Source: Candidatus Kaiserbacteria bacterium RIFCSPHIGHO2_01_FULL_53_31 (GTDB lineage Bacteria > Patescibacteriota > Minisyncoccia > Phycocordibacterales > Phycocordibacteraceae). Taken from it: DNA of 64,000 nt. The stretch is taken from NCBI GenBank assembly GCA_001781095.1, contig MFKU01000010.1, positions 14,254-78,253 of the forward strand, written 5' to 3'. Both the position numbers and the translations under genes were made by a program. Below the pieces are notes generated by a model, which ran no database searches, was not told where the DNA came from, and saw only the letters and a list, made by a program, of their open reading frames with translations. Positions 5,565-60,903 of this stretch are shown here, one piece after another (positions within the stretch are counted from its first letter, which is position 1; every line of letters begins with the position of its first letter).

Positions 5565-5795
5565 TCAGACCTTATAGCTCACGCCTAACTCAAGCATCCA
5601 GTTGCCCTGCTCGTCACATGGATCGATGCACAGTTCCTTGATCACATGCGTCACGGCACCGTTGCAATACGTTATCGTGAGTTCTCCCTTCTCCAGCTGT
5701 TCGCGTTTGAATTCAAGAAATGCCTCATAGTTTGTCCTTGGCACCTTCTCGCTAAAAACGAGAAATCCAGCGCACCATCCTTCGACCGTGTACAT
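5565..5795 (-). CDS. small Cys-containing hypothetical protein (76 aa) with its own SD
   Basis: ORF between dnaK and dnaJ. mRNA upstream reads GGAAGGGGGCACAAAA-ATG. Four Cys residues. No recognised family. Confidence 0.45.
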
Positions 5796-5889
5796 TTTTT
5801 GTGCCCCCTTCCTGCGGCATTCTACTCTTTGGCCAAGATGAGGTCAATCAAAACACCGCGCCCCTCTGGGGCGCGGTGTTTTGAACTAT

Positions 5890-7785
5890 TTAGGGCTTTT
5901 CTTTAAATTCTGCGTCAGTTGGCGCAGCCCCTTCTGGTGGCGGTGAATTGCCAGCATCTTTTTTATCCTCCGTAGCCTTGGCGGAGGAGGACATCATCGC
6001 TTCTCCAATTTTCGAGAGAGTTGTTGAAAGTGCTTCAGTGGCGCTCTTGATAGTTCCCGCGTCTTCGCTATTCTTCGCCGTCTTCAAAGCATCAATCTTG
6101 TCCTGCACTTCTTTCACCAATTCGACGCCGACTTTGTCTCCATTATCCTTGATCGCTTTCTCGGCAGCGTACATCGCTTGGTCAGCGATGTTGCGCACTT
6201 CGACGAGCTCTTTACGTTTCTCGTCGTCTGCGGCATGCGCCTGCGCGTCTGCCTGCATCTTCTCGATGTCGGCCTTCGAGAGGCCGGTGGAGCCCTCGAT
6301 GCGAATGCTCTGCTCCTTGCTTGTGGTCTTCTCCTTCGCCTTCACGGTGAGAATGCCGGACGCATCAACGTCGAAGGTCACTTCGACTTGTGGCATACCG
6401 CGCGGCGCGGGCGGGATACCGTCGAGCATAAATTTGCCGAGTGACTTATTGTCGGCGCTCATCGCGCGCTCGCCCTGCGTGATATGAATCTCCACTGACG
6501 GCTGATTGTCGGCTGCCGTCGAGAAGGTTTGCGAGCGACTAGTCGGGATCGCCGTGTTGCGCTCGACAAGCTTCGTCGCGACGCCGCCCATCGTCTCGAT
6601 GGCGAGCGAGAGCGGGATCACATCGACAAGTAAAATGTCCTTCACATCGCCTTGAAGGATGCCCGCTTGGATCGCTGCACCAATCGCGACTACTTCGTCC
6701 GGGTTCACCGTCATGTTTGGCTTCTTGCCAAAGAACTTTTCGACGGCTGCCTGGATGGCAGGCATGCGCGTCTGGCCGCCGACGAGAATCACTTCTTGAA
6801 TATCTTCCACCTTAAACGGTGACGCTTCCATAGCGCGCTTGCTGATCGCCATCGCACGATCGATAAATTCACTCGACAATTCTTCGAGCTTCGCGCGCGA
6901 CATCTTAATCAACAGGTGCCGGGGACCGGACGCATCACTAGTCAAGAATGGAATATTGATTTCGCTCTCCATAGCGCTCGAGAGCTCGATCTTCGCCTTC
7001 TCTGCCGCCTCGTCGAGACGCTGACGGGCGAGCGCATCGCCGAGCACGTCGATGCCGCTTTCCTTTTTGAATTCAGCCGCGAGCCAGCTGATGATCTTCT
7101 GGTCGATATCCTTCCCGCCCAGGTGCGCGTCGCCGTCGGTACTCTTCACCTCGATAACGTCATCGCCCACTTCAAGCACCGAGATGTCGAAGGTGCCTCC
7201 GCCAAAGTCGAACACGGCGATTTTCTCATCCTTTTTCTTGTTGAAACCGTACGCAAGCGCAGCAGCGGTCGGCTCGTTGATGATGCGCTTTACTTCAAGA
7301 CCCGCGATTTGCCCCGCGGCCTTTGTCGCGCTCCGCTGATCATCGTTAAAGTACGCGGGCACCGTAATCACCGCTTCGGTAATCTTCTCACCGAGCCGCG
7401 CTTCAGCATCGGCCTTTAACTTCCCGAGAATCATCGCAGAGAGCTCTTCGGGGCGGTACCATTTATCATTCATCTTGACCTCGATTCCTCCGTTGTCGGC
7501 CTTGCGCATTTCGAAGGGTACCGACGCTTTATCCTTCTGCACGGCAGACTCGTCGAAAGAATGTCCGATGAAACGCTTGATTTGGAAAATGGTATTCAAG
7601 GGGTTGGTCACCGACTGACGCTTAGCGAGCGTGCCGACGATGCGTTCGCCGTTCTTCCCCACCGCGACGATAGAGGGTGTGGTGCGCGCTCCCTCGGCGT
7701 TCTCGAGAACACGTGGCTCACCACCCTCGACGATCGCCATCGCGCAGTTCGTAGTGCCCAAATCAATACCAAGAATTTTTGCCAT
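5890..7785 (-). CDS. dnaK: chaperone DnaK (Hsp70)
   Basis: MAKILGIDLGTTNCAMAIVEGG..., full Hsp70 ATPase and substrate-binding domains; 631 aa. Confidence 0.95.
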   Translation of the reverse strand: MAKILGIDLGTTNCAMAIVEGGEPRVLENAEGARTTPSIVAVGKNGERIVGTLAKRQSVTNPLNTIFQIKRFIGHSFDESAVQKDKASVPFEMRKADNGGIEVKMNDKWYRPEELSAMILGKLKADAEARLGEKITEAVITVPAYFNDDQRSATKAAGQIAGLEVKRIINEPTAAALAYGFNKKKDEKIAVFDFGGGTFDISVLEVGDDVIEVKSTDGDAHLGGKDIDQKIISWLAAEFKKESGIDVLGDALARQRLDEAAEKAKIELSSAMESEINIPFLTSDASGPRHLLIKMSRAKLEELSSEFIDRAMAISKRAMEASPFKVEDIQEVILVGGQTRMPAIQAAVEKFFGKKPNMTVNPDEVVAIGAAIQAGILQGDVKDILLVDVIPLSLAIETMGGVATKLVERNTAIPTSRSQTFSTAADNQPSVEIHITQGERAMSADNKSLGKFMLDGIPPAPRGMPQVEVTFDVDASGILTVKAKEKTTSKEQSIRIEGSTGLSKADIEKMQADAQAHAADDEKRKELVEVRNIADQAMYAAEKAIKDNGDKVGVELVKEVQDKIDALKTAKNSEDAGTIKSATEALSTTLSKIGEAMMSSSAKATEDKKDAGNSPPPEGAAPTDAEFKEKP

Positions 7786-7834
7786 AATTAAATAGGTTAC
7801 GTAGTAATGATTCTACGGAAATGCAGGGAGGAGT

Positions 7835-7899
7835 GCAAGCAAAACAAAAGAGAGTTGAATTGGCCTAGCGGCCCGAGCGCTCTATTTTGTTTTGCTTGC
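7835..7899. repeat. 20-bp-arm inverted repeat in the grpE-dnaK spacer (candidate operator or RNA stem-loop)
   Basis: GCAAGCAAAACAAAAGAGAG ...33 nt... CTCTATTTTGTTTTGCTTGC (19/20 complementary). Not the canonical CIRCE spacing or sequence. Confidence 0.5.
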
Positions 7900-7907
7900 C
7901 GACGACC

Positions 7908-8450
7908 TTATCCGCCAAAATGTGCAACGCGGACTTTTGCCGGACGTATCACCGAGCCGTTAATGCACCAGCCTTTTTCAAGTACCGCTATGATTTTATT
8001 GTCGTTCTCTGAATCTTGAGTGGCGTCCTGCCCAAACGCTTCGTGCATCGCCGGGTCGAACTGCTCGCCCACCTTCCCCACCTCCTCGAGCCCGAGTGAC
8101 GCGAATGCACTCTCGATCTGCCGCGCGATTGCCGTAAATCCTTCTGGAATCTCTCCATGCTCTTTAGAACGCTCGAGCGCGTCAAACGCCGGTAAGAGAG
8201 TTCCAACAGCCTTCACCTTACCTCTCAATTCCGACGCTTTAGTGTCTCCCTCTATTCGCTTCAAGAGATTCACATAATCCGCCTTGGCCCGCTGCCAGCC
8301 GTCCATATATTCCTGTTTCTCCTTCCGACATGCGCTTAGCTCGTCACGCAATTTTGCGATCTTGTTTCCCTCGAGGGACTCGGGATCTTCGCATCCTTCG
8401 GGTGCCTCAGGATCCTCGACCTCGATTTTTACATAATCTTCCCCATCCAT
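7908..8450 (-). CDS. grpE: nucleotide exchange factor GrpE
   Basis: RAKADYVNLLKRIE and LLPAFDALERS motifs; operon position upstream of dnaK. Confidence 0.85.
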   Translation of the reverse strand: MDGEDYVKIEVEDPEAPEGCEDPESLEGNKIAKLRDELSACRKEKQEYMDGWQRAKADYVNLLKRIEGDTKASELRGKVKAVGTLLPAFDALERSKEHGEIPEGFTAIARQIESAFASLGLEEVGKVGEQFDPAMHEAFGQDATQDSENDNKIIAVLEKGWCINGSVIRPAKVRVAHFGG

Positions 8451-8489
8451 CTCTCCACTATGCCTGAAATTGCGATTTTTTTCAAATGT

Positions 8490-8531
8490 TCAATAAAGAT
8501 ATGCAAGAAATCGCCTAACGGCGATTTCTTG
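8490..8531 (-). terminator. rho-independent terminator after rpsI
   Basis: CAAGAAATCGCC-TAAC-GGCGATTTCTTG (12-bp stem), then CATATCTTTATTG on the minus strand. Confidence 0.6.
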
Positions 8532-8536
8532 TGAGA

Positions 8537-8932
8537 CTAACGTTTGCTCCATTGCTTGCGTTTACGCGCCTTCACGAGGCCCGGTTTCTTTCGTTCCTTG
8601 GCGCGCGGATCGCGCGTGAGGAAGTGCGCAGCCTTTAGCTTCGCACGAGTGCCCGGTTCAGCCTTGATAATCGCGCGAGAGATAGCGTGGCGAAGTGCAT
8701 CCGCTTGTGCCGCGATGCCGCCGCCTTCGACATGTGCGGCCACTGCGTAGTGCTCCGCGCTCTCGGCCATCGCGAGCGCCTCCTCGGCGACCTTCGCGCG
8801 TTCACTGGTCTTAAAATAATCTTTGACGCTCTTGCCGTTGACCATCACCGATGACTTCGACGCGGCAATCATCCGCACGCTCGCGGTAGCGGTCTTGCGG
8901 CGCCCGACTGCGGTAATAAATTTCGTTGCCAT
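8537..8932 (-). CDS. rpsI: 30S ribosomal protein S9
   Basis: C-terminal ...KARKRKQWSKR typical of uS9; 131 aa. Confidence 0.92.
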   Translation of the reverse strand: MATKFITAVGRRKTATASVRMIAASKSSVMVNGKSVKDYFKTSERAKVAEEALAMAESAEHYAVAAHVEGGGIAAQADALRHAISRAIIKAEPGTRAKLKAAHFLTRDPRAKERKKPGLVKARKRKQWSKR

Positions 8933-8935
8933 ATA

Positions 8936-9301
8936 TTATGCGTGCACTATTAAATTCTTCATGCGTGGCGTGCGAAGTTTGTTGCGTGGGATCATTCCAT
9001 CAACCGTCTTCTTCACGACCTCTTCTATTCCCTTCTTCGTGATCATCTCGTCCATGCGGATCGAGCGCTGACCGCCTGGATACCCCGTGTAGTGGAGATA
9101 CACCTTCCCCTCCGTCCGGCGTTTCGGGAGATGCAGTTTGCTCGCGTTCTCGATAACGACCTTCACCGGAAGCGCTTGATTCTTGACGAAGTGCACCGAA
9201 CGCTTCCCGAGAAGCGCGTGCGCCGCCTCGCTCGCCACGCGTCCAAGCGTACGATCAGTCGCATCGATGGTATGAGTTGTCGGTTTCATTAAAGTGCTCA
9301 T
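8936..9301 (-). CDS. rplM: 50S ribosomal protein L13
   Basis: MSTLMKPTTHTIDATDRTLGRVAS... is the uL13 N-terminus. The upstream part of the 247-aa ORF call is a non-coding extension. Confidence 0.88.
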   Translation of the reverse strand: MSTLMKPTTHTIDATDRTLGRVASEAAHALLGKRSVHFVKNQALPVKVVIENASKLHLPKRRTEGKVYLHYTGYPGGQRSIRMDEMITKKGIEEVVKKTVDGMIPRNKLRTPRMKNLIVHA

Positions 9302-9306
9302 AGTAT

Positions 9307-9660
9307 CTACACAAACGCGATATACGCAAGCTTGCGTGCATCGTTCGCGCCGCGCTTCGTGCGCTTCACCACGCGTGTGTACCCGCCCTTCCGATCGGCA
9401 TAGCGCGGACCGATCGTGCCAAAGAGTTTCTTCACCGAGGCCGTGTCGCCGAGCCGCATCTGCGTAAGCCGTCGGCTCGCGAGCGTGTTCTTCTTTGCGT
9501 AGGTCACTAACCGCTCGACGAACGGTCGCAACTCTTTCGCCTTCGCCTCGGTTGTCGAGATGCGCTCGTGCATGACGAGCGAGCGAGCGAGCGAACGCAA
9601 GAGCGCCCGGCGCTGATTCGCCGGCCGACCGAAGACTCTCGCTTTTTTGGTGTATGCCAT
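9307..9660 (-). CDS. rplQ: 50S ribosomal protein L17
   Basis: Internal start MAYTKKARVFGRPANQRRALLRSLA... is the bL17 N-terminus. Confidence 0.9.
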   Translation of the reverse strand: MAYTKKARVFGRPANQRRALLRSLARSLVMHERISTTEAKAKELRPFVERLVTYAKKNTLASRRLTQMRLGDTASVKKLFGTIGPRYADRKGGYTRVVKRTKRGANDARKLAYIAFV

Positions 9661-9682
9661 ACGTGTTCCAACAATCCAATGC

Positions 9683-10633
9683 TTAATCCATCTTGAGCAC
9701 AAGACCGAGGCCGGCGAGCGCCTTGGAGATCTCTTCAATCGCCTTGTCCCCGATGCCGTCAATCTCTTTCAGCGATGAGGCCGACTTGCGTGCGAGACCG
9801 GCTGCACTCTTGATGCCCGCGCCCTCGAGCGCTCCGATTACCCTCGCCGAGAGGCCGAGCTCCGTGACTTTCACCTTGGTCGCGCCAGCACCCGGTGCAT
9901 CGCTTTCTGCAGCAGGAGCAGCCGTCGGCACGCTTACAGGAGCACTCTCCTGGAAACCGATAATCGACTTCAGCTGGTGGATCATTATCTCTATTGATTG
10001 TTCGAGTGCCGTGCGCGGTGAAATCGTGTCGTTCGTCTCGATAAAAATGCGCAGGCGGTTGAAATCGGTCCGGTCCCCGACGCGCATATTTTCCACCTCA
10101 TAGTTCACGCGGCGAATCGGCGTAAAGGTCGCATCGAGCGCGATGGTGCCGATGTCGACCTTTTCCTTCGAGAGCACCTCGCGCGGCACATAGCCGAGGC
10201 CGCGATCGATCGTCGCCTCGAGTTCGAGCGAGGCTTTCCCCGAGAGGTCGGCGATGTGCTGATCAGGATTCTGTATTTCGACCTGGCTTGGAAGCTTGAA
10301 ATCTCTTGCCGTCACTTCATGCGTACCCTTGACCGAGAGCGCAATAGTCTGCGGATCGTCGCCGTGAAGAACGAAATGCACACGCTTCAAATTTAAAAGC
10401 ATCTCCATCACGGTCTCACGCATACCTTCAATGGTCGCGAATTCGTGGGGAACGCCCTCGATCTTCACCTGTGTTACTGCGGCGCCGGGAAGCGACGAGA
10501 GAATAATGCGGCGGAGCGAATTGCCCAGCGTGTGGCCGTAGCCCGGGTAGAGCGAATCAATCTCGTATACGCCTTGTACGCCTTCTTCTGAAACGATACG
10601 AGGCTTACTCGGAAGTGTGATGTGGTATTCCAT
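9683..10633 (-). CDS. rpoA: DNA-directed RNA polymerase subunit alpha
   Basis: N-terminal domain GHTLGNSLRRIILSS, C-terminal HhH domain; 316 aa. Confidence 0.93.
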   Translation of the reverse strand: MEYHITLPSKPRIVSEEGVQGVYEIDSLYPGYGHTLGNSLRRIILSSLPGAAVTQVKIEGVPHEFATIEGMRETVMEMLLNLKRVHFVLHGDDPQTIALSVKGTHEVTARDFKLPSQVEIQNPDQHIADLSGKASLELEATIDRGLGYVPREVLSKEKVDIGTIALDATFTPIRRVNYEVENMRVGDRTDFNRLRIFIETNDTISPRTALEQSIEIMIHQLKSIIGFQESAPVSVPTAAPAAESDAPGAGATKVKVTELGLSARVIGALEGAGIKSAAGLARKSASSLKEIDGIGDKAIEEISKALAGLGLVLKMD

Positions 10634-10660
10634 AACTCAATCGTAATTACCAATAATAAT

Positions 10661-11272
10661 CTAACGTGTGTAGAATGAGAGCACAGTCGTGAGGTCGCCC
10701 GCCGGATCCGCCGAAGCGGCCGTCGGTCGCGCAACTACCGAGCCCTCCATCGCCTTCGGATTCCACGAAAGCCACGAGGGAAGCGGCCGCTCCATAAAGC
10801 GCTCGCCGAAACCGACAAGGACCCCGTGCGATTTCGAACTTTCGCGCACGGCGATCTTCTCTCCCGGCGAAAGCGCGTGCGAAGGAACGCGGATCTTCTT
10901 GTCCCCGACGAGCACGTGGCCATGCGCAACCATCTGGCGTGCCGCACGGCGCGTCGGCGCCAGGCCCAATCGCCAAACTACGTTATCGAGACGCAGTTCC
11001 AGGAGCTCGTGCAAACGGTCCGCCGGCTTCGCGCTATGCGCGGCAAGCGCTTTGTTCACATACCCGCGAAACTGCTTTTCGGGCAGGCCGTAGGTCACGC
11101 GTACCTTCTGCTTCTCGAGCATCTGCTTGCCGTACTCACTTTGGCGGCCGCGGCCACGGCGTTTGTTCTTTGCACTGCGGTCAGCGGAGAGCGCGAACTT
11201 CTGCGTCTGCGCTTTCTCAAATACTGAAACGCCGAGGCGCTTCGCGATCTTATATCGTGGTCCGGTAATCAT
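10661..11272 (-). CDS. rpsD: 30S ribosomal protein S4
   Basis: MITGPRYKIAKRLG...; S4 domain; 203 aa. Confidence 0.92.
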   Translation of the reverse strand: MITGPRYKIAKRLGVSVFEKAQTQKFALSADRSAKNKRRGRGRQSEYGKQMLEKQKVRVTYGLPEKQFRGYVNKALAAHSAKPADRLHELLELRLDNVVWRLGLAPTRRAARQMVAHGHVLVGDKKIRVPSHALSPGEKIAVRESSKSHGVLVGFGERFMERPLPSWLSWNPKAMEGSVVARPTAASADPAGDLTTVLSFYTR

Positions 11273-11281
11273 AAATATATT

Positions 11282-11716
11282 TTACACGCGGCGCGGCTTC
11301 GGCGGGCGCGGCCCGTTATGCGGCACCGGCGTCGCGTCCTTGATGGAGCGAATCTGGATGCCCTTGCTCGAGAATGCACGTAAGACCGACTGGCGCCCCG
11401 CACCGACACCACGAATGACCACCGATGCCTCCTTGAGGCCGATCATCGTTCCCTTCTCGCCGAGGAACTCCCCGACCTTCGCCGCTGCGTAGGGTGTCGA
11501 CTTGCGCGCACCGCTGAAGCCGAGCGCACCAGCCGAGGATGAAATGATCGCATTTCCCTTCTCGTCCGTGAGAATGGCCTTCGTGTTATTGAACGTTGCT
11601 TCGATATGGAGAATACCCTTCTCGAGGTGACGTTTCGTAACTCTCGACATCGCGCGCTCCTTTCTTCCCGCGTCGAGGCCTTTTCCACTTTTCTTGATGA
11701 TTCGTTTCTTTCCCAT
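11282..11716 (-). CDS. rpsK: 30S ribosomal protein S11
   Basis: GILHIEATFNNT...AGALGFSG...TPYAA motifs. Confidence 0.92.
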   Translation of the reverse strand: MGKKRIIKKSGKGLDAGRKERAMSRVTKRHLEKGILHIEATFNNTKAILTDEKGNAIISSSAGALGFSGARKSTPYAAAKVGEFLGEKGTMIGLKEASVVIRGVGAGRQSVLRAFSSKGIQIRSIKDATPVPHNGPRPPKPRRV

Positions 11717-11718
11717 AA

Positions 11719-12099
11719 TTATGTCTTTTCGAGCGTACGTCGGCCTGAGGTCATCGTCTTGCGCACGTTGCCGCGGCGCGTGCGGGAATTCGTCTTTGTG
11801 CGCTGGCCACGGACAGGAAGCCCCCGCTCGTGGCGCGCACCGCGAGCCGACTTGATATCTTTGAGCCGCTTAATATTCTGACCTATCTCACGACGCAGTT
11901 CGCCCTCGATGACAAACGCTTCGGCGAGCGAGCGGATCTTCTGCTCCTGTTCGCTTGTAAGCTCCTTGCCTTTCTTAGTGAAATCAACCTTCGCTTGTAT
12001 CAGGATCTCTCGTGCACGCGTCGGGCCGATGCCGAAGATCTGCGGCAGCGCATACGCGAGCTGTTTATCATCAGGAATCGTGACACCGGCGATACGCAT
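11719..12099 (-). CDS. rpsM: 30S ribosomal protein S13
   Basis: MRIAGVTIPDDKQLAYALPQIFGIG... Confidence 0.92.
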   Translation of the reverse strand: MRIAGVTIPDDKQLAYALPQIFGIGPTRAREILIQAKVDFTKKGKELTSEQEQKIRSLAEAFVIEGELRREIGQNIKRLKDIKSARGARHERGLPVRGQRTKTNSRTRRGNVRKTMTSGRRTLEKT

Positions 12100-12108
12100 A
12101 TAAAATAA

Positions 12109-12225
12109 TTAACCCTGGCGCGCTTTGCGGCGCGGGTTTTTCTTATTGATACGGAAAAGACGTCCGCCACGGCGGACGAGCTGATCTCCCGGCTGCTGCT
12201 TTTTTATAGACGCACGTACTTTCAT
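12109..12225 (-). CDS. rpmJ: 50S ribosomal protein L36, zinc-independent (Cys-less) form
   Basis: Manual translation [38 protein letters not shown]. bL36 framework with all four Zn-ligand Cys replaced. Below the ORF-track length cutoff. Confidence 0.8.
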
Positions 12226-53603: not shown

Positions 53604-54257
53604 TTATTTCTTGCTACGCCAGTTGTCAATGTTTGCGTGATGGCCGGTTTGAAGAACTTTCGGGACCCGATAATTCTTCTTTTTGTATGAAATGGTTTCG
53701 GGGCGGGTGTAGACCGCCGAGGAGGCGATGCGACGCTCCTCGACGGACGCATCCTTGCCGAGCACGCCCGGGAGACGGCGCGTGACTGCATCCACGATCG
53801 CGAGTGCAGGTATCTCGCCGCCGGTGTATACAGCCTCGCCAACTGCAAATTCCTTTACGGTTGCAAGTGTTTTTAGAATCTTCTTCGCGCGTTCATCAAT
53901 GCCTTCATAGCGACCGCAGACGAGCACTACATCATCATACTTAGTGAGTTTGTCGGCATCTTTATTCGTGAACTGCTTCCCGCTTGGGCTGAACCAAACA
54001 ATGACCGTAAGGCGTTGCCTTACGGTTTTGCCCAAGGCTGCCTGAACAGCCTTAACTATAGGCAGCGCTGACATCACCATCCCTGGCCCCCCGCCATACG
54101 GGCGCTCGTCCACCTTGCCCCATTTGTTGTCGACAAAATCGCGTGGGTTCTGATACTTCACTACCATCTTCTTCTCTTTCCGCGCGCGCCCGATGATCGA
54201 TGCATTTAAATAAGCATCGCAGGCTTCTGGAAACAGTGTGATGAGATGAAATTTCAC
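53604..54257 (-). CDS. trmD: tRNA (guanine37-N1)-methyltransferase
   Basis: SPOUT fold; PYGGGPGMVM motif. Confidence 0.9.
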   Translation of the reverse strand: MKFHLITLFPEACDAYLNASIIGRARKEKKMVVKYQNPRDFVDNKWGKVDERPYGGGPGMVMSALPIVKAVQAALGKTVRQRLTVIVWFSPSGKQFTNKDADKLTKYDDVVLVCGRYEGIDERAKKILKTLATVKEFAVGEAVYTGGEIPALAIVDAVTRRLPGVLGKDASVEERRIASSAVYTRPETISYKKKNYRVPKVLQTGHHANIDNWRSKK

Positions 54258-54259
54258 TT

Positions 54260-54559
54260 TTACAACTCCTCAACAACTTGGTCGACGGTTTTTGATTCGG
54301 TATCGCGTTTGCCACCGACGGGCTCATTGATTTTTAGATTTACCCGTGCATTCCCTTTCATACCAACCACGCGAAGCAGAATGCGCAATGCCTCGGCGGT
54401 CTTGCCGCTCTTGCCGATAATCTTACCCATGTCATCGGGGTGCACGGTGAGAGTGAGGAGTACTCCCATTTGATCAATGGTGCGCGTTGTTTCTACAGAT
54501 TCCGGATGATCGACAAGCGCTTTAACTGCGTATTCGAGAAATGTTTGGTCTGGTTCCAT
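54260..54559 (-). CDS. khpA: KH-domain RNA-binding protein (KhpA/YlqC)
   Basis: GKIIGKSGKTAEALR KH GxxG loop; position rpsP-khpA-trmD. Confidence 0.8.
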   Translation of the reverse strand: MEPDQTFLEYAVKALVDHPESVETTRTIDQMGVLLTLTVHPDDMGKIIGKSGKTAEALRILLRVVGMKGNARVNLKINEPVGGKRDTESKTVDQVVEEL

Positions 54560-54594
54560 AGGGATATGTTAGCTATTCCGCCAAAGGCGGCAGG

Positions 54595-55119
54595 TTAGGT
54601 GGCAGGAGTTTCTTCTGTAGCCGGAGTTCCCTCGACAGGAACTTCTTCGGCTGGCGTTTCCGCTGGGGCTTCTTCGGCTGCTGGCTCTGCTTCTGCCACT
54701 ACCTCTGCCTCAGTCGGCATGGGAGATACCTCATCTGCTGCGGGAGCCGCTAGTGCAGTTTCGCTTTCGGTCTTTACTGCCTCGGCCTCTGCGGCAGTTT
54801 TCTTTTCTGCTTCAGCCGCTGCCGCAACCGCCTCCTCATCTACTTGCGGCGTTTTCTTCGGAAGGACATTCACCTTTTTACCGGTGAGTACGCCTTTATT
54901 AATCAAGAGATTGCGAATAGAATCAGTCGGTTGAGCACCCTTAGCGATCCATTCCTTCACTTTTGCCTCGTTCAAAGTGAGCGCCTTACTGCGAGGATTA
55001 TACGTGCCAAGCTGTTCGACTATATTGCCGGTCTTAGCAGCACGCTCCTTTTCCAAAACGGCAATGCGAAATGCCGGATCATTGGTCCGGCCGATGCGCT
55101 GAAATCGAATCATCAACAT
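54595..55119 (-). CDS. rpsP: 30S ribosomal protein S16 with Ala/Glu/Pro-rich C-terminal extension
   Basis: MLMIRFQRIGRTNDPAFRIAVLEK... bS16 core (~85 aa) plus a ~90-aa acidic low-complexity tail. Confidence 0.88.
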   Translation of the reverse strand: MLMIRFQRIGRTNDPAFRIAVLEKERAAKTGNIVEQLGTYNPRSKALTLNEAKVKEWIAKGAQPTDSIRNLLINKGVLTGKKVNVLPKKTPQVDEEAVAAAAEAEKKTAAEAEAVKTESETALAAPAADEVSPMPTEAEVVAEAEPAAEEAPAETPAEEVPVEGTPATEETPAT

Positions 55120-55167
55120 GAGTGCGACTATAGCAGAAGGACGCAGATATTGCTAGAGTAGAGCTAA

Positions 55168-57120
55168 ATGGCTGGTTCTGAACTCTATGAAGGCCCGATA
55201 GCGATGACCCGCAAGGGTTTCGGCTTTTTTTCGATTGGCGAAGATAAAGAGGATCTCCTTATACCGCCTGAATCAACAAACCATGCCCTCTCGGGCGATA
55301 TCGTAAAGGTGACCCCCGCGGGAACATATCGCGACCCAATGGGAAAAATGCCGCCGCGAGAGGCTGGCACAGTAGTCGAGATCGTCTCGCGCGCCCGCGA
55401 GTCCTTCGTCGGTACACTCGTCCCATCTGAGGAACGGCCCGGAATCATTCTCCTCCAGCCTGACTACAAGCGGATGCATGTGCCACTCGAAGTGAGAGAT
55501 GCCCAAGATGCTCCTCTAGGCTATAAAGTCCTCGTTGAAATGAAGGGTTGGGACGACGATATTGCCTACCCATGGGGTGTCGTCACCGAGAAGATCGGCG
55601 AGGCTGGCGTGCATGAGACCGAGATGCGCGCGCTTGTCCTCGGCCAAGGATTCTCGAGTGACTTCCCTCCCGGTGTGATGAGTGACGCACACGACCTCGA
55701 GTTGAATGGCCGAACCCAAATCAAAGAAGAAGTTGCCAAAGGAACGCGTAGAGATTTCCGCGCTATCCCGACCTGCACCATCGACCCTTTTGATGCAAAA
55801 GATTTTGACGATGCACTCTCGGTGCGAAAGCTCGACGATGGGAATAGCGAAATTGGCGTGCATATCGCCGACGTCTCATTCTTCGTGAAGCCAAGCACAA
55901 ACCTCGACAAAGAGGCCTATGCCCGAGCAACAAGTGTGTACCTCGTCGACCGCACGGTGCCGATGCTCCCTGAGATTCTTTCAAATGACCTCTGTTCACT
56001 AAAGCAGGGTGAGGATCGCCTCTCCGTCTCTGCAGTTTTTACACTCGACAAAGACGCCAACATTGTGGACACGTGGTTTGGCGAGACTGTGATTCACTCT
56101 GCGAAGCGCTTTGTCTATGAAGAAGCTCAGGATGTCCTCGATAACGGCGAAGGGACGCTGCATGAAGAGCTCGCGCTCATGCTCGATCTATCGAAGAAGA
56201 TTCGCACCCGTCGTCAGGCGAAGGGTGCGATCGAATTCGACACCGTCGAAGTTAAGGTCGAGCTCGACCAAACCGGTAAGCCGATCGCGATTCGCTTGAA
56301 GGAGCGCAAAGCGACTAATCTCATGATCGAGGACTTCATGCTTCTCGCGAACGAGGCCGTGGCGAAGCATCTCTCAGATCTCACGAGTAATGGCGGCCCT
56401 CACTTCGCTTCGCTTTACCGCATCCACGATGAGCCAGACGCCGACCGGATCGAGAATCTAGCGAACCTTCTTAGGATTATGGGTTATCAACTTAAGACAA
56501 AAGCTGGAAAAGTCTCGGGCGCTGAATTAAATAAACTGCTCGATGCGGTGAAAGGCAAACCTGAAGAGTACCTCGTAAAGACAGCTACGCTTCGCTCGAT
56601 GAGTAAGGCAGTGTACGCGACACAGAACATCGGTCATTTCGGTCTCGCCTTTGATTTTTATACTCATTTCACTTCCCCGATCCGGCGCTACCCTGACCTC
56701 ATCATCCATCGCCTCATCAAAGCGCACGCCGGCGGCGACCTGATCACACCTACAGAAATGCAGGAGTTCGACAAACTCGCACTGCACGCATCAGAGCGCG
56801 AGGTGGCGGCATCCGACGCCGAGCGCGACTCAGTCAAGATGAAGCAGGTAGAATTTCTCTCGACAAAAATTGGCGAGACCTTTGACGCCGTTATCTCGGG
56901 TGTGACCGAGCGCGGTCTCTATGTCGAGGAGCAAACAACCCACGCTGACGGGATGATCATGATCCGTAATGTCGGTGATGACTATTTTGAATTTGACGAA
57001 AAGCATTACCGCCTCGTCGGCCGCCGCACGCACAAAGCCTTCCAACTTGGCGATCCTATCCGCGTCAAATTGATGGCCGCCCGCATCCCCGAAAAAGAAT
57101 TGGATTTTGTTCCCGCCTAA
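55168..57120 (+). CDS. rnr: ribonuclease R
   Basis: Cold-shock domains, RNB catalytic domain (IDPFDAKDFDDALS, HFGLAFDFYTHFTSPIRRYPD), S1 domain. Confidence 0.9.
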   Translation: MAGSELYEGPIAMTRKGFGFFSIGEDKEDLLIPPESTNHALSGDIVKVTPAGTYRDPMGKMPPREAGTVVEIVSRARESFVGTLVPSEERPGIILLQPDYKRMHVPLEVRDAQDAPLGYKVLVEMKGWDDDIAYPWGVVTEKIGEAGVHETEMRALVLGQGFSSDFPPGVMSDAHDLELNGRTQIKEEVAKGTRRDFRAIPTCTIDPFDAKDFDDALSVRKLDDGNSEIGVHIADVSFFVKPSTNLDKEAYARATSVYLVDRTVPMLPEILSNDLCSLKQGEDRLSVSAVFTLDKDANIVDTWFGETVIHSAKRFVYEEAQDVLDNGEGTLHEELALMLDLSKKIRTRRQAKGAIEFDTVEVKVELDQTGKPIAIRLKERKATNLMIEDFMLLANEAVAKHLSDLTSNGGPHFASLYRIHDEPDADRIENLANLLRIMGYQLKTKAGKVSGAELNKLLDAVKGKPEEYLVKTATLRSMSKAVYATQNIGHFGLAFDFYTHFTSPIRRYPDLIIHRLIKAHAGGDLITPTEMQEFDKLALHASEREVAASDAERDSVKMKQVEFLSTKIGETFDAVISGVTERGLYVEEQTTHADGMIMIRNVGDDYFEFDEKHYRLVGRRTHKAFQLGDPIRVKLMAARIPEKELDFVPA

Positions 57121-57191
57121 GTTAGGCGACACATCAATATTTCTATCCAGTCCATACTATATAGCGTACTACAAGTAAAACAACCACCGGG

Positions 57192-57220
57192 AAAGTTAGG
57201 ACATCGGATGTCCTAACTTT
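57192..57220. repeat. REP-like palindromic hairpin (left)
   Basis: AAAGTTAGGACATCGGATGTCCTAACTTT; overlaps the transposase stop codon. Confidence 0.7.
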
Positions 57221-57863
57221 TGTATTCCAGATAGTCGCTTTCTTGAGCAAGGCTTGGGTCATGAATAACTTCAACGATTGTCCGCTCATACTCTGACCGC
57301 GTCCCGAGCATTGGATTAAGCACATCGGTCCTAATAATTGACGGGAAATTTCGCACGCCCAAATAATCGAGATGACTGCTCCAGCGATAGTCGAGTAATG
57401 CTTCGAGAGCCTTTTTAGTATTTCTAACCTCGCCCGCGCGCCATTCTGGATGCACATAATCGAGAGGATTGAGATGTATATAAAATGGAATATAGAGAAA
57501 ATGCGCATCACGTTTTATTTGCACCTTGCGATATTTACCCTGCCAGAGAGCACCCGAGCGTTTATGCCGATTATTGAAATATTTTGTATAGCCCATATTA
57601 ATCTTTTGCATAAACAGAGAAATCCCATTCTCGATACGTTCTGTAACGAGCAGATGATAGTGATTCTTCATTAAGCAATACGAATGGATATCGACGAGTT
57701 GTTCACGAGCATGATCTTCGCGCCGCTCATTCAGAATGTAATTCGGCGTCGTGTTGCGATCATTTAAGGCATACAGGTTGTGAATGAAGCGGAGACGGTC
57801 GTGCTTGTCTGTAACGATATCTCGTTTCTCCACCCCACGCCCAATAAGGTGCCAGAATTCCAT
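57213..57863 (-). CDS. Y1 HUH transposase (REP-associated tyrosine transposase / IS200-like)
   Basis: HUH motif NHYHLLV; catalytic tyrosine region GYTKYFN; 216 aa. Confidence 0.7.
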   Translation of the reverse strand: MEFWHLIGRGVEKRDIVTDKHDRLRFIHNLYALNDRNTTPNYILNERREDHAREQLVDIHSYCLMKNHYHLLVTERIENGISLFMQKINMGYTKYFNNRHKRSGALWQGKYRKVQIKRDAHFLYIPFYIHLNPLDYVHPEWRAGEVRNTKKALEALLDYRWSSHLDYLGVRNFPSIIRTDVLNPMLGTRSEYERTIVEVIHDPSLAQESDYLEYKS

Positions 57864-57878
57864 TGCGTCATTATAGCT

Positions 57879-57908
57879 AAAGTTAGGACATCCGATGTCC
57901 TAACTTGT
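57879..57908. repeat. REP-like palindromic hairpin (right, inverted relative to left)
   Basis: AAAGTTAGGACATCCGATGTCCTAACTT; exact reverse complement of the left hairpin, 16 nt upstream of the transposase start. Confidence 0.7.
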
Positions 57909-57978
57909 GCATAATTCATGAGCTGGACAATCCTATCGAGGTCAGACTTACTGTTGCTTGCATCACTGAAAAAGAAAT

Positions 57979-58021
57979 GGATTTTATTCCTGCATAAAAT
58001 TAGAACACCGGAGGTCCAACT
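57979..58021. repeat. degenerate duplicate of the rnr 3' end plus a degenerate REP copy
   Basis: GAAAAAGAAATGGATTTTATTCCTGCATAA reads KEMDFIPA* against rnr KELDFVPA* (26/30 nt); followed by AATTAGAACACCGGAGGTCCAACTTT. Confidence 0.6.
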
Positions 58022-58351
58022 TTACTTTTGCAGTTTTCTTATGAGCATAATCATTTTCTGAATTACCCAAGATAGTCCCCCTGTAGCGCAGGTTACGAAT
58101 ATGAGCATCAACCATTGTATGGAACTAATTGTTTTAATTTCTGATCGGATTGTTCCATTACGCAACGTGTAGGTACAGAGCGTGCCATGCGGCCAAATCG
58201 ACAATTCCATTTTTGCACATCCGCCTTCCTCAAAAAATGAAGATCCGCTATATAGGCAGCGATGCTCCGATATCGGCGTAGCTAATCCCCAAAACATCGC
58301 GAGACCTACGATAAATGCTAACCCACTAATAATTAGACTTAAGCGTGTCAT
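58022..58351 (-). CDS. hypothetical membrane protein (109 aa), low-GC
   Basis: Two TM segments; AT-rich codon usage unlike its neighbours. Confidence 0.4.
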   Translation of the reverse strand: MTRLSLIISGLAFIVGLAMFWGLATPISEHRCLYSGSSFFEEGGCAKMELSIWPHGTLCTYTLRNGTIRSEIKTISSIQWLMLIFVTCATGGLSWVIQKMIMLIRKLQK

Positions 58352-58403
58352 CCGTTGAACATTGTGATGTTCATATTAATTAACTTCAGAGCGACCGTTT
58401 AAG

Positions 58404-60650
58404 TTACTTCGCAACAGCGACCGCTTCGTCGAACTTTACACTTAGGAGTTTTGAGACGCCATCCCCACCCATAGTGACGCCATAGAGGATCCCGGCGCGG
58501 CTCATAGTCTCGCGATTGTGCGTGATCACGATAAGCTGCGACTTCTTCGCGAGGTTTCCGATCATGTCGCCGTAGCGACGGCTGTTCGCTTCATCGAGCG
58601 AAGCATCGGTCTCGTCGAGGATGAGGAACGGTGGTGGGTTCACCTGACTCATGGCAAAGATGAGCGCAATGCTGGTAAGCGCTCGCTCGCCGCCCGAGAG
58701 CTGCATCAGGGAGCGCACCTTCTTCCGAGGAAGATTCACTGAGATTTCAATGCCGGCCTTACCCTTCGTAGCATTGGCGGAGAAGGGGTCGCTTGATTCT
58801 TCCAACTCTTCAGATTCGTCCAATTCCTCAACTTCGGGCTCTTCCAAAGTCAAACGTGCATTGCCACCGCCGAACATAAGCGCGAAATATTCGTTAAATG
58901 ATTCATTTACTTTCGAGAGACCCTCAGTGAAATGTTTAGCGAGTTCAGTATCCAAATCTTGAATGAGTGCACCCAAGCTCTCGGCCGATTTCGCGAGGTC
59001 GTCGAGCTCCCGCGCGAGAAATGTCTCACGCTCCGACACCTCTTTGTGCTCGTGACGGATCTCTTCGCCCGCACCGCCAGCTTCTTCGAGGCGAATCTTG
59101 ATTCGCTCAAGTTGCCGCGCGCGATCTTCCTGGCCGCTATGCTCGTCCTCAGATATCGACCCACGCGGTTCGTACGAGATCCCTTGAGTACCGACGAGCG
59201 CTACCACTTCCGCCTTATCGGTATCTAGCCGCCCCGTCAACAGTTTCAATTCGCGCTCGCGCGCATCCGCGTGCGTTACCTCACTTTCTTCATGCGCTTT
59301 CGTCTGGGCAAATTCGAGAATGTGCCGACGCAACTCCCTACCCGTCTCGTCGTATGCCGTAAGTTCTTCCCTCGCACGCAGGAGCGCAAGTTTCGCTTCT
59401 TCAAGATTCTTGGAGAGCATAGTTTCTTTTTCTCCTAATTTCTTCTGCTCTTCTTCGAGCGCATACACCGACTGCTCCTCATCGGTGAGCCGATCATCGC
59501 CGACGATAAACCTGTCGACGAATGCTTTTATCGTCGTATGTAACGACTTCAGCGCTGACAAAATGGCGTCCGATGTACTCGTCTGCCGGACTTGCCGTTC
59601 TGCTTCTTCAGCGAGCGCGACGAGCTCTTCTCGAGAGATGCGCGCATAGGGATCGGTGCCGATCTTCGTGCTGCGCTCCTTCGCCGCCGCCAACGCTCCC
59701 TCGATTCTCCCGAGCTCGCGTGCGAGCGCGCCCCGCTCGCTCGATAGGCGATCCGCCGTCGCCTCTGCCTTACGCACTACCTCGAGACGCTTAGCGCCCT
59801 CCGCATCGGTCGTGGCACGCTCCTCAATCGCCGAGAGCTCGGCACTTGCGGCGGCGAGCCGTCCCGTGGCCAAACGTTTCTCTTCGGCGACCTTCACCTT
59901 CTCTTCCGCTATGCGCGTGTCCTCGATCGAGAAGTACATCTGCGCGAGCGTTATAAGTTTCTTCCGTAAACTGTCGGCGCGTTCAAGCTTCTCAACTTGT
60001 CGCTCGAGGAAACGCAGATGCGGCGCGAGTTCGCGTCGAAGTGAATTCACCTGTGCGATGTTCACTTCAGTCTTCTCAAGCTTCCGTTGTGCTTCAGTCT
60101 TTTTGAATTCATAGACCTTGAGCCCGAGCGCGTCTTCGAGCATCGTACGTCGCTCGCGCGCATTCGCCAGAAGAATCCTATCAGCTTCACCCTGCGAGAT
60201 GATGTGGTGGCTCGTCTCGCCGATGTTGGCACCCGCCAGCAGTTCTTCGATATCGCGCAAGCGGACCTTCGACCCATTGATCGAGTACTCGCTCGTCCCA
60301 TCACGGTGTACTACACGCTCAATCACCACTTCATCAAAATCGATATTGAACGTGCGCTTCCCATCCGTTCCGCCATCCGCCAGCCGGCGGATTGGATTAT
60401 CAAAAACAATCGCGACCGCAGCGCGATTCGAACGAGGCACGGAATGCGACCCGTTGAAAATAAGATCTTCAGCGCGTTTGCCGCGCATGCTCTTCATCGA
60501 CTGCTCGCCGAGCGCAAATCGGAAGGCCTCGGCAACATTACTCTTGCCCGACCCGTTCGGCCCCACAATCGCCGTCGTGGCCGATGAGAAATCAAGTACG
60601 GTCTTCCGTACAAAAGATTTAAACCCGACGATCTCCAGTCGCTTCAACAT
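58404..60650 (-). CDS. smc: chromosome partition protein SMC, minimal 748-aa form without recognisable hinge
   Basis: Canonical SMC N-terminus (RLEIVGFKSF...GPNGSGKSN...DLIFNGS) and C-terminus (LSGGERALTSIALIFA...LILDETDASLD...ITHNRETM). Conserved rnc-smc synteny. Only ~450 aa of coiled coil between the heads. Confidence 0.8.
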   Translation of the reverse strand: MLKRLEIVGFKSFVRKTVLDFSSATTAIVGPNGSGKSNVAEAFRFALGEQSMKSMRGKRAEDLIFNGSHSVPRSNRAAVAIVFDNPIRRLADGGTDGKRTFNIDFDEVVIERVVHRDGTSEYSINGSKVRLRDIEELLAGANIGETSHHIISQGEADRILLANARERRTMLEDALGLKVYEFKKTEAQRKLEKTEVNIAQVNSLRRELAPHLRFLERQVEKLERADSLRKKLITLAQMYFSIEDTRIAEEKVKVAEEKRLATGRLAAASAELSAIEERATTDAEGAKRLEVVRKAEATADRLSSERGALARELGRIEGALAAAKERSTKIGTDPYARISREELVALAEEAERQVRQTSTSDAILSALKSLHTTIKAFVDRFIVGDDRLTDEEQSVYALEEEQKKLGEKETMLSKNLEEAKLALLRAREELTAYDETGRELRRHILEFAQTKAHEESEVTHADARERELKLLTGRLDTDKAEVVALVGTQGISYEPRGSISEDEHSGQEDRARQLERIKIRLEEAGGAGEEIRHEHKEVSERETFLARELDDLAKSAESLGALIQDLDTELAKHFTEGLSKVNESFNEYFALMFGGGNARLTLEEPEVEELDESEELEESSDPFSANATKGKAGIEISVNLPRKKVRSLMQLSGGERALTSIALIFAMSQVNPPPFLILDETDASLDEANSRRYGDMIGNLAKKSQLIVITHNRETMSRAGILYGVTMGGDGVSKLLSVKFDEAVAVAK

Positions 60651-60708
60651 TGCTCTCTATTGTATCAAACAAAACTGTGCTAAAAGAGTATTCAGAAGGA
60701 GGGTAAGT

Positions 60709-60903
60709 ATGCGTCTTGAATCGAATAGGAAGCGCCCGCGACTGGCTCCCGTTTTCTTCCTGGCTGCTGTCGCGGGGGCAACGTGGTTAATCTTCACAAC
60801 TCCCGAAACGAATGCTCGTCAAAAGAGCCCTGCACGTTTCGAGTCACTCGGGCCGGTTTCAGAGCAACGACCCAATCGCCACGAGTGTTCTCCGGTTCCA
60901 TAA
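60709..60903 (+). CDS. small secreted/membrane peptide (64 aa), SD-led
   Basis: AAGGAGGG 5 nt upstream of ATG: MRLESNRKRPRLAPVFFLAAVAGATWLIF...; followed by a terminator. Confidence 0.4.
   Translation: MRLESNRKRPRLAPVFFLAAVAGATWLIFTTPETNARQKSPARFESLGPVSEQRPNRHECSPVP

Follow-up and report, generated by a model that had tools for sequence, protein, structure and literature searches.

Two expression architectures appear to coexist in the stretch of DNA analysed here (the window, 64,000 nucleotides), which comes from a groundwater Candidatus Kaiserbacteria, a CPR bacterium of the Paceibacteria. In this reading, to which we assign a probability of roughly 0.6, an SD-free or leaderless core would stand beside SD-led mini-genes of the flexible genome, and the SD would thus mark the flexible gene pool of the lineage. 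The underlying SD dichotomy between core genes and small ORFs is real and strong and is confirmed by the data presented below. CPR bacteria have reduced ribosomes. To our knowledge there is hardly any experimental work on their translation initiation, and a search of the accessible literature yielded no account of leaderless or SD usage in CPR.

SD sites were scored as the duplex energy with ACCUCCUUU, the canonical 16S tail, which may not be that of the host, and a value of -8 kcal/mol or better was taken as a strong SD. The gene-class statistics cover 81 genes of the window and its 10-kb flanks (84 kb, a part of the genome), divided into 57 Pfam genes and 24 Pfam-less genes, with 1076 internal ATGs as chance control. 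A strong SD is found for 13 of the 24 Pfam-less genes versus 2 of the 57 Pfam genes (Fisher P = 5e-7). Core genes reach the cut-off in 3.5% of cases compared to 3.8% for internal ATGs, and the median energy is -2.8 kcal/mol for both; the SD signal of the core thus equals chance. The initial annotation had described a number of housekeeping genes as devoid of an SD and seven small-ORF sites as carrying one, and both descriptions hold. None of the former has an SD, and each of the latter has an SD rich in purines, located 3-8 nt upstream of the ATG, with duplex energies of -8.2 to -12.9 kcal/mol. The CCUCC-like sequences reported upstream of core genes could not be substantiated, as there is no enrichment (CCTCC, 0 observed versus 1.15 expected; CCTC, 3 observed versus 6.7 expected). 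Two core genes, TrmD and S11, score at about -8 kcal/mol. TrmD shows GAGGAG ahead of a GTG start that is backed by the protein N-terminus. The S11 match probably sits inside the gene, because other gene calls as well as the relative L093 place the start of S11 2 nt downstream of S13.

The SD-led set in the window comprises 12 ORFs of 21-128 aa in seven self-contained units (Table 1), with duplexes of 7-11 nt, energies of -8.2 to -13.1 kcal/mol and spacers of 3-8 nt. Two further SD-led Pfam-less genes, missed in the initial annotation, lie in the flanks. The units are laid out as a sigma70-like -35/-10 promoter, a leader of 16-75 nt, an SD of 7-11 nt, one or more ORFs and a hairpin terminator. 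Strong intrinsic terminators, already recognised earlier behind most of the small ORFs, are present in 7/7 units (hairpins of -21 to -30 kcal/mol with a T-run, each beginning between 2 nt upstream and 35 nt downstream of the stop codon), while hairpins of this strength follow only 2/56 other genes. We also considered the hairpins as a REP/MITE family of an IS200-like transposase, which was rejected since their sequences are mutually unrelated. SD-led ORFs lie on the strand opposite to core genes more often than other genes do (8/12 versus 7/56, P = 3e-4), and their terminators may shield core operons against transcripts that are antisense or read through.

The conserved genes show a -10 signal close to the start codon. 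TANNNT boxes ending 6-8 nt before the ATG were found for 26 genes (4.3 expected, P = 1e-12), and the extended form TGnTANNNT, which peaks sharply at 6 nt, at the same gap for 15 genes (0.43 expected, P = 1.5e-18). This box was absent from the initial annotation and is the main feature of the window. About 45% of genes possess a -10 box at leaderless distance, which at the level of sequence prediction agrees with the earlier guess that the core is translated from leaderless mRNA. Many of these promoters lie within the final part of the upstream gene, such as the hisS -10 box in a methyltransferase gene, and the tyrS promoter is placed within a 15-nt gap after an ABC-transporter gene. Several gene starts in the window differ between assemblies, and the alternative starts fit the leaderless promoter. 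According to the GeneMarkS-2 study (PMC6028130), the Pribnow box of leaderless genomes has the geometry found here, 6-8 nt before the start codon. Such a box would place the transcription start at or beside the start codon, and the resulting leaderless mRNA would be initiated without an SD. Judged by promoter geometry, about half of the conserved genes look leaderless; the other conserved genes would rely either on tight coupling to the upstream gene or on short AT-rich SD-less leaders, the latter subgroup including rpsM, rpoB, rpoC, an RRM gene and ychF. No gene shares both signals, with a leaderless-type -10 box in 0/15 of the SD-led set versus 29/66 of the others. Across 29 CPR loci, leaderless-type -10 boxes occur at 25-50% versus 2-5% in controls, and strong SDs near the starts of long ORFs are at the control rate (5%); Bacillota loci show 28% SD.

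Table 1. Positions of the seven SD-led units and of the core genes with leaderless-type promoters in the window.
Feature	Position	Strand	Details
Unit 1, between dnaK and dnaJ	5525..5847	-	SD-led
Unit 1 promoter	5819-5847	-	TTGACC-17-TAGAAT
Unit 1 SD	5803-5812	-	GGAAGGGGG
hyp76 (unit 1)	5565-5795	-	76 aa, orphan
Unit 1 terminator	5525-5566	-	-29.6 kcal/mol
Unit 2, variable gap ychF/DUF5671 gene	30410..31169	-	SD-led
Unit 2 promoter	31142-31169	-	TTGACA-16-TATTTT
hyp128 (unit 2)	30733-31119	-	128 aa, SD 31124-31132
hyp69 (unit 2)	30486-30695	-	69 aa, Cys-rich, weak coding score, SD 30701-30709
Unit 2 terminator	30410-30450	-	-28.9 kcal/mol
Unit 3, divergent from ychF	32352..32733	+	SD-led
Unit 3 promoter	32352-32380	+	TTGAGA-17-TATAGT
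Unit 3 SD	32416-32425	+	GGGGGAGG
hyp83 (unit 3)	32429-32680	+	83 aa, orphan
Unit 3 terminator, bidirectional	32689-32733		-27.8 kcal/mol
Unit 4, five-ORF cluster	36053..37433	+	SD-led
Unit 4 promoters	36053-36080 and (second) 36527-36554	+	
hyp84 (unit 4)	36126-36380	+	SD 36111-36121
21-aa hydrophobic ORF (unit 4)	36405-36470	+	SD 36390-36400; missed in initial annotation
hyp96 (unit 4)	36605-36895	+	orphan, SD 36592-36601
hyp61 (unit 4)	36912-37097	+	SD 36894-36903
hyp63 (unit 4)	37188-37379	+	63 aa, SD 37173-37179; missed in initial annotation
Unit 4 terminator	37396-37433	+	-22 kcal/mol
Unit 5, divergent from dnaG	45169..45475	+	SD-led
Unit 5 promoter	45169-45196	+	TTGACA-16-TAATGT
Unit 5 SD	45216-45226	+	AAAGGAGGT
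hyp60 (unit 5)	45231-45413	+	60 aa, two hydrophobic segments
Unit 5 terminator	45438-45475	+	-21.3 kcal/mol
Unit 6, antisense between SMC-like gene and rnc	60694..60965	+	SD-led
Unit 6 SD	60694-60703	+	GAAGGAGGG
hyp64 (unit 6)	60709-60903	+	64 aa, weak coding score
Unit 6 terminator, bidirectional	60917-60965		shared with rnc
Unit 7, upstream of rpmF (L32)	63148..63515	-	SD-led
Unit 7 extended -10	63507-63515	-	TGgTATAAT, leader about 75 nt
Unit 7 SD	63432-63439	-	CGGAGGT
hyp72 (unit 7)	63207-63425	-	72 aa; missed in initial annotation
Unit 7 terminator	63148-63195	-	-27.7 kcal/mol
Core gene set, after start revision	748..63122	both	55 genes
Core subgroup a			-10 box 5-9 nt before ATG; 30 genes
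Core subgroup b			gap <=30 nt or overlap with upstream gene, no SD; 13 genes
Core subgroup c			SD-less AT-rich leaders, 67% AT vs 47% in window; 13 genes
tyrS leaderless-type promoter	2008..2013	-	TGgTATAGT, hexamer ends 6 nt before ATG (2001)
HD-domain gene leaderless-type -10	19208..19213	-	TGtTACAAT, 6 nt before ATG (19201)
hisS leaderless-type -10	38747..38752	+	TGaTAAAAT, 6 nt before ATG (38759)
dnaG leaderless-type promoter	45146..45151	-	TTGTCA-18-TAGACT, -10 ends 6 nt before ATG (45139)
Divergent leaderless-type promoters, rpsP/RNase R	55127..55159	both	48-nt intergenic gap
rpsP (S16) promoter	ATG 55119		TGcTATAGT, 7-nt gap
RNase R gene promoter	ATG 55168		TGcTAGAGT, 8-nt gap

By hexamer coding score, 9/11 of the small ORFs rank above the 94th percentile of spurious ORFs, and hyp69 and hyp64 have scores typical of non-coding frames. 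An energy of -11 kcal/mol or better is reached by 7/11 small ORFs versus 0.4% of internal ATGs. Of 16 intergenic GGAGG motifs, 9 have a downstream ATG at a distance suited to an SD; window-wide an ATG lies 3-9 nt after 18/101, and after roughly one in ten of those in coding regions. The GC content of the small ORFs is that of the core (0.539 versus 0.541; the GC3 difference is not significant), and their synonymous codon usage is poorer (P = 2e-5). Their proteins are mutually unrelated and mostly species-specific, Pfam and PHROGs profiles gave no match, and no known RNA in Rfam overlaps any of the ORFs. The AlphaFold model of hyp128 shows a confident fold (pLDDT 81.5) with no significant match in the PDB. 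The available strain contigs are at least 99.85% identical, hence strain-level dN/dS is uninformative.

Protein collections were searched for homologues of four small ORFs (hyp76, hyp83, hyp96 and hyp128). For the first three, none was found in 5.8 billion clusters or 1.8 billion representatives. The fourth, hyp128, is part of a small family whose members were all found on CPR-type contigs, at 44-75% protein identity and in hosts of 36-56% GC. Most of its members keep the SD, with -7.4 kcal/mol or better in at least 8 of 12 distinct genes (the window's own counted), although their leaders cannot be aligned; one SD-kept member occurs in L093, which shares 77-91% identity with the window in its ribosomal proteins. 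A tblastn search with the seven small ORFs near ychF gave no match in syntenic relatives (YchF 71-82% identical), whose ychF-centred loci keep the flanking synteny. The units occupy positions of variable content between conserved genes, in many cases on the strand opposite to these. In the ychF/DUF5671 slot, L013, L015, L017, L024 and L025 each contain a different inserted gene, all SD-led, and the slot is empty in relatives without an insert. In L101, a hyp128-family gene preceded by AAAGGAGGTGATC occupies the position ahead of rpmF, and an antisense ORF of 78 aa whose SD reaches -13.2 kcal/mol is found in the rnc/smc slot. Some lineage-specific genes of the window are not SD-led, namely hyp250, hyp83b, hyp118, an ECF sigma gene and a PAS gene (33-36 kb). 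SD-led genes of other CPR loci include larger annotated ones for PPDK, transketolase, a pilin and a binding protein, and the small size of those in the window may therefore be a trait specific to this genome. The share of SD-led genes in the CPR loci, about 4%, was obtained with a greedy length-based gene map, which misses most small ORFs in relatives because spurious antisense ORFs win.

No integrase or tRNA target accompanies the small ORFs, and a search for flanking repeats found none. The neighbouring MazE-Fic module is the only element with a flanking duplication (67 nt). IMG/VR contained no viral relatives of hyp128 or hyp96, and a phage origin of the small ORFs was rejected, as just a weak PAS-domain match for a neighbouring gene was obtained there. 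The initial annotation had interpreted the small ORFs as recent acquisitions from SD-using donors, which is only partly supported. Their phylogenetic distribution (lineage-specific where tested), their orphan status, their variable slots and their poor synonymous codons favour recent acquisition. SD-using donors are less well borne out, considering the core-like GC, the lack of a donor homologue and a hyp128 family that mostly keeps its SD within CPR-type contigs.

Neither the window, nor its 10-kb flanks, nor 1.8 Mb of relatives' loci contain a 16S gene. In one survey, about 52% of Parcubacteria yielded no anti-SD motif (PMC9297842), and published absence may partly reflect truncated 16S annotation (PMC12641178). 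The extended SD matches AAAGGAGGT in the window and AAAGGAGGTGATC in L101 fit the canonical 16S tail, with which the SDs of the small ORFs would pair. The retention of near-perfect, well-spaced SDs across divergence argues that at least this lineage probably still uses an anti-SD, and it bears on the published claim that many Parcubacteria lack one. GGAGG is depleted in coding regions (O/E 0.57 versus synonymous shuffles, z = -5.5). Avoidance of internal SDs as a proxy for an active anti-SD was nevertheless rejected, since the depletion is limited to frame 2, is common to GGCGG, GGTGG and CCTCC, and is due to a general G|G and C|C codon-junction bias.

In the favoured reading of two architectures, SD, promoter and terminator would travel or arise together with accessory genes, presumably because such a cassette would work wherever it landed. 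Alternatively, the SDs could be fossils, i.e. non-functional motifs that have not yet decayed, brought in by recent imports from SD-users or their mobile elements into a host whose ribosome has no usable anti-SD. This would be in line with a core SD signal not above chance, with about half of the 16S genes of Parcubacteria yielding no anti-SD motif (PMC9297842), and with ORFs that are missing from relatives, sit in variable slots and use poor codons. However, no donor homologue was found for three of the ORFs among billions of proteins, the GC of the small ORFs is identical to the host's, and the number of contigs carrying them is similar to that for core genes, so that they look fixed in the sampled population. 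Moreover, an unselected relic would soon lose the optimal spacing and the energies of -11 kcal/mol or better seen in 7/11 ORFs, and the hyp128 family has kept its SD at 44-75% identity, including in a second Kaiserbacteria-like genome. Given also that truncated 16S annotation may account for part of the published motif absence (PMC12641178), we consider fossil SDs unlikely. If the 16S were truly without an anti-SD, the genome would be full of perfect SD sites without a partner.

A dedicated channel, in which SD-dependent 30S initiation serves condition-specific small proteins (host-interaction, stress or toxin-like) and is switched as a block against leaderless 70S-type core initiation, e.g. 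via IF3 or YchF, seems improbable to us. The mutual exclusion of the two signals (0/15 versus 29/66), the insulated and autonomous units, the small hydrophobic peptides encoded by two of them and YchF, which is retained in CPR and linked to leaderless translation (PMC12641178), would fit such a switch. Yet reading the upstream regions of the units revealed no shared regulatory, promoter or operator motif but ordinary -35/-10 promoters, and the mutually unrelated, mostly species-specific proteins do not resemble a conserved regulon. The far-reaching version of the favoured reading, namely that initiation in Kaiserbacteria and related Paceibacteria is split by gene age or class, that the ancient core proteome depends on leaderless and SD-free initiation and that the SD survives only as entry channel for young, orphan or mobile genes, is at present doubtful. 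Finally, it is very improbable, and largely refuted, that the small ORFs are no genes and their SD-ATG pairs chance products picked by SD-aware gene callers: callers may, as we assume, weight SD-like motifs in choosing starts, hyp69 and hyp64 score as non-coding and most of the ORFs lack homologues, but the frequencies of ATGs behind intergenic GGAGG and of energies of -11 kcal/mol, the coding scores, the conserved and confidently modelled hyp128 family, the lack of Rfam overlap and the fact that each ATG opens an ORF of 60-128 codons ending within 35 nt of a strong terminator all argue against chance.

Among known systems, GeneMarkS-2 group C (Actinobacteria, Deinococcus-Thermus) resembles the window in promoter geometry (PMC6028130): a Pribnow box lies 6-8 nt before many starts, ATG starts dominate and a large share of transcription units is predicted to be leaderless. 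Leadered and operon-internal genes of group C use an SD, whereas the remaining conserved genes of the window have none, and only small accessory genes possess one. The window further differs in that leaderless-type promoters often occur within operons and at the ends of genes. In the passages of that study considered here, CPR does not appear among the lineages of group C (PMC6028130). In mycobacteria, as in the window, two initiation modes occur in one genome with many small ORFs (PMC4633059, PMC3898074). There, a tendency towards leaderless mRNAs is seen for small proteins and for toxin-antitoxin genes (PMC4633059, PMC3898074), which is the reverse of the window, where the small orphans are SD-led and the housekeeping genes are predicted to be leaderless. 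Bacteroidota and Cyanobacteria (GeneMarkS-2 group B, SD-poor with the anti-SD retained) share with the window SD-less core initiation and A/T-rich sequence before the start, but they lack its leaderless -10 signal, which in their loci occurs at 10-15%, equal to controls. The anti-SD of Flavobacteria is sequestered, and an SD is retained at rpsU. The SD-bearing gene there encodes a ribosomal protein, in contrast to the orphans of the window. ORFan or accessory genomic islets are comparable to the SD-led units in being lineage-specific, placed between syntenic blocks, poor in codon usage and variable in slot content. The units differ from them as single tiny genes with their own promoter, SD and terminator, and in having no integrase, repeat or tRNA target.

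If the leaderless, SD-free core were lineage-wide, gene calling would be affected in thousands of CPR MAGs, and ribosome reduction would be tied to the mode of initiation. The split of initiation, if true, would permit translation-level control of the flexible genome separately from the core. Restriction of the SD to orphan and accessory mini-genes would provide a simple sequence marker of the flexible genome, and the small ORFs are testable candidates for small, possibly host-interaction proteins.

The scored gene set comprised 67 genes from public gene calls and 14 from the 10-kb flanks (tyrS, dnaJ, dnaK, grpE, a ribosomal-protein/rpoA block, alaS, leuS, ychF, hisS, rpoD, dnaG, rpoC, rpoB, trmD, rpsP, rnr, rnc, a nusB fusion, rpmF and others in the window); the window belongs to a 75-kb groundwater metagenome contig, assigned by cluster names and nearest GTDB genomes to Candidatus Kaiserbacteria (CPR, Paceibacteria), and near-identical contigs are present in about 20-30 assemblies, including the NCBI MAG GCA_001781835.1. 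The Shine-Dalgarno (SD) signal was scored as the duplex of positions -22 to -3 with ACCUCCUUU, a canonical 16S tail which may not be that of the host. The pairing energies of the 81 genes are bimodally distributed. All small ORFs singled out in the initial annotation possess a strong SD (-8.2 to -12.9 kcal/mol, spacer 3-8 nt) and none of the housekeeping genes described there as SD-free does, core (Pfam-positive) genes being indistinguishable from internal ATGs (3.5% versus 3.8% of 1076 at ≤ -8 kcal/mol; median -2.8 for both). SD-led starts belong to 13 of 24 Pfam-less genes versus 2 of 57 Pfam genes (P = 5e-7); of these 15 genes, 13 encode ≤130 aa. Members of the SD-led class that had not been listed before are two further ORFs (see table), a 21-aa ORF and two Pfam-less flank genes. 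An ATG follows 9 of 16 intergenic GGAGG sites at SD-appropriate spacing; across the whole window, 18 of 101 are followed by an ATG at 3-9 nt, which implies a rate of roughly one in ten in coding regions. The sole core gene with a believable, moderate SD is trmD (GAGGAG before a GTG start with which the N-terminus agrees), and the SD match of S11 probably lies inside the gene. CCUCC-like sequences 5' of core genes, also proposed initially, were not supported on counting.

In each of the seven units formed by the SD-led ORFs, a sigma70-like promoter, in most cases with a -35 as well as a -10 element (for example TTGACC-17-TAGAAT, TTGACA-16-TATTTT, TTGAGA-17-TATAGT, TTGTTA-16-TATAGT, TTGCTA-16-TATAGT and TTGACA-16-TAATGT), precedes a predicted leader of 16-75 nt. 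Eight of the 12 ORFs, versus 7 of 56 other genes, lie on the + strand (P = 3e-4). They are often antisense to core genes, which would explain the need for strong, sometimes bidirectional terminators. Scanning the 110 nt past each stop for hairpins of ≤ -20 kcal/mol with a T-rich tail yielded nine, of which seven close the seven SD-led units and two follow dnaK and rnc, the rnc hairpin serving hyp64 as well (hypN denotes a Pfam-less ORF of N aa). Since every unit is closed in this way, the suspected private terminators are real. The 21-aa ORF, directly 3' of hyp84 and unannotated everywhere, is very hydrophobic and recalls type I toxins or small membrane peptides.

Core upstream regions are rich in TATAAT-like hexamers, often with an extended TG, that end exactly 6 nt, in some cases 7-8 nt, short of the ATG. 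Of the 81 genes, 26 have TANNNT at a gap of 6-8 nt versus 4.3 expected (P = 1e-12), and 15 have TGnTANNNT versus 0.43 (P = 1.5e-18). This spacing is the defining mark of leaderless transcription in Actinobacteria and Deinococcus (PMC6028130). Such a leaderless-type -10 is present even at intergenic gaps of 4-30 nt, which places promoters within the end of the upstream gene. Alternative starts, which differ between assemblies, become leaderless-type for an ABC transporter, hyp391, alaS, an M3 peptidase and a PD-(D/E)XK gene. Once starts are revised, 30 genes of the window are leaderless-type, 13 are coupled, 13 have AT-rich, SD-less leaders and 11 are SD-led, the mini-ORF being counted in addition. 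Leaderless-type -10 and SD are mutually exclusive (0 of 15 SD-led versus 29 of 66 other genes). The annotated TTG start of rpoB is probably wrong, and the long leader before the ATG may hold an uncharacterised regulatory RNA. A TTAATT-like AT-rich element, preceded by GTAACCT in both dnaK and rpoC, abuts the ATG in four SD-less leaders and is a candidate for an operator or for an enhancer of SD-independent translation.

In a hexamer model trained on core genes only, nine of 11 small ORFs exceed the 94th percentile of scores for spurious ORFs; hyp69 and hyp64 fall below. The small ORFs match nothing in Pfam or PHROGs, no Rfam family overlaps them, and their GC equals that of core genes with poorer synonymous codon choice (P = 2e-5). 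Against 5.8 billion clusters and 1.8 billion representatives, hyp76, hyp83 and hyp96 gave no homologue outside the species; available strains are ≥99.85% identical. The hyp128 family is small and well conserved (15 proteins, 44-75% identity, CPR-type contigs only), and the confident AlphaFold model of hyp128 (pLDDT 81.5) matched no PDB fold. No relatives of hyp128 or hyp96 were found on viral contigs.

At the ychF locus, the downstream order ychF, DUF5671, leuS, sigma-like, DUF8128, yceG, mnmA and onward is kept in many CPR genomes; the small ORFs are not kept. The ychF-DUF5671 gap is empty in some genomes and holds a different insert in each of five related loci (L013, L015, L017, L024, L025), all SD-led (-8.3 to -13.2 kcal/mol). 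In a further locus, L101, a hyp128-family gene stands before rpmF behind AAAGGAGGTGATC, which matches the canonical 16S tail over 13 nt, and an antisense 78-aa ORF (SD -13.2) occupies the rnc/smc slot, mirroring hyp72 and hyp64 of the window. Twelve distinct hyp128-family genes were examined, counting that of the window; at least 8 retain an SD of ≤ -7.4, one of them in a locus (L093) with ribosomal proteins 77-91% identical to the window's; most keep the terminator, and the leaders are not alignable. Three further Pfam-less genes of 128-168 aa on other CPR contigs that carry hyp128 homologues, two with a strong SD (-11.5 and -11.7 kcal/mol), suggest the same accessory-cassette pattern elsewhere. 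In 29 CPR loci, strong SDs near long-ORF starts are as frequent as in controls (5%), and a leaderless-type -10 is seen at 25-50% versus 2-5% in controls; Bacillota loci in the same pipeline gave 28% SD and no -10 excess. SD-led genes are rare in other CPR genomes, some being larger and of accessory type (PPDK, transketolase, pilin, binding protein).

Other features of the window were also recorded. The right repeat copy flanking a toxin-antitoxin module overlaps the rpoC 3' end, so the module looks inserted, duplicating that end. A tblastn gap over the NUDIX segment in L012, L015, L018 and L024 indicates that the leucyl-tRNA synthetase insertion is not universal. The Y1 transposase and its hairpins may form an IS200/IS605-type element, or the enzyme may be of the REP-associated kind. 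The sigma-like protein adjoining leuS has an unusual architecture and is conserved across CPR relatives.

Coordinates of individual features (window positions unless a related locus is named)
Feature	Coordinates	Strand	Remarks
Further SD-led ORFs	37188-37379; 63207-63425		
21-aa ORF	36405-36470	+	MWRLLVVLLLGILWLLHVPEA; perfect SD GAGGAGGTG
rpoB starts	53347; 53290		TTG, annotated; ATG, typical N-terminus
rpoB leader	53291-53603		~313 nt from ATG 53290; no SD, no Rfam match
TTAATT-like elements	7786-7810; 50070-50095; 12100-12125; 53291-53315		dnaK; rpoC; rpsM; rpoB
67-nt direct repeat	45522-45588; 46334-46400		85% identity, 812 nt apart
MazE-like antitoxin/Fic-Doc toxin pair	45598-46229		bracketed by the repeat
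Leucyl-tRNA synthetase	26547-29384	-	NUDIX domain, residues 384-511, E = 2.4e-13, just after editing domain
NUDIX-NusB fusion	61769-62695		second NUDIX domain
IS200-like Y1 transposase gene	57213-57863		
Flanking hairpins	57192-57225; 57879-57912		near-identical, 28-34 nt
Third hairpin	57996-58029		degenerate; 117 nt beyond flanking copy
Sigma-like protein	25427-26500	-	357 aa; N-terminal sigma-70 region 4 and HARE-HTH domain
Pfam-less genes, L092	4187-4573; 10466-10852		strand opposite to neighbours
Pfam-less gene, L093	6545-7051		

In a published survey, the CCTCCT motif went undetected in roughly half of Parcubacteria (PMC9297842), and annotation of the 16S 3' end is frequently incomplete in CPR (PMC12641178). 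Given how well the SDs pair, how they are spaced and that they persist in evolution, a functional anti-SD is the likelier case, and we consider it fairly probable. Internal SD avoidance gives no indication either way of anti-SD activity, the apparent depletion being a codon-junction effect. As to origin, recent acquisition from SD-using donors, the initial proposal, holds for the accessory nature of the ORFs and is weakened by the missing donor, the host-like GC and the fact that hyp128 relatives keep their SD. A translational channel of regulon type is less likely, as no shared motif was seen and the proteins are unrelated. Leaderless-rich and SD-poor genomes are both already known; our literature search returned no paper on a leaderless or SD-free core combined with confinement of SD to small orphan cassettes, nor on CPR initiation signals, and in mycobacteria the association is opposite. 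In conclusion, the evidence best fits a split across the lineage, in which conserved genes would initiate leaderless or SD-free and the genes of a flexible pool would occupy recurrent slots as self-contained cassettes, each with its own promoter, SD, ORF and terminator.
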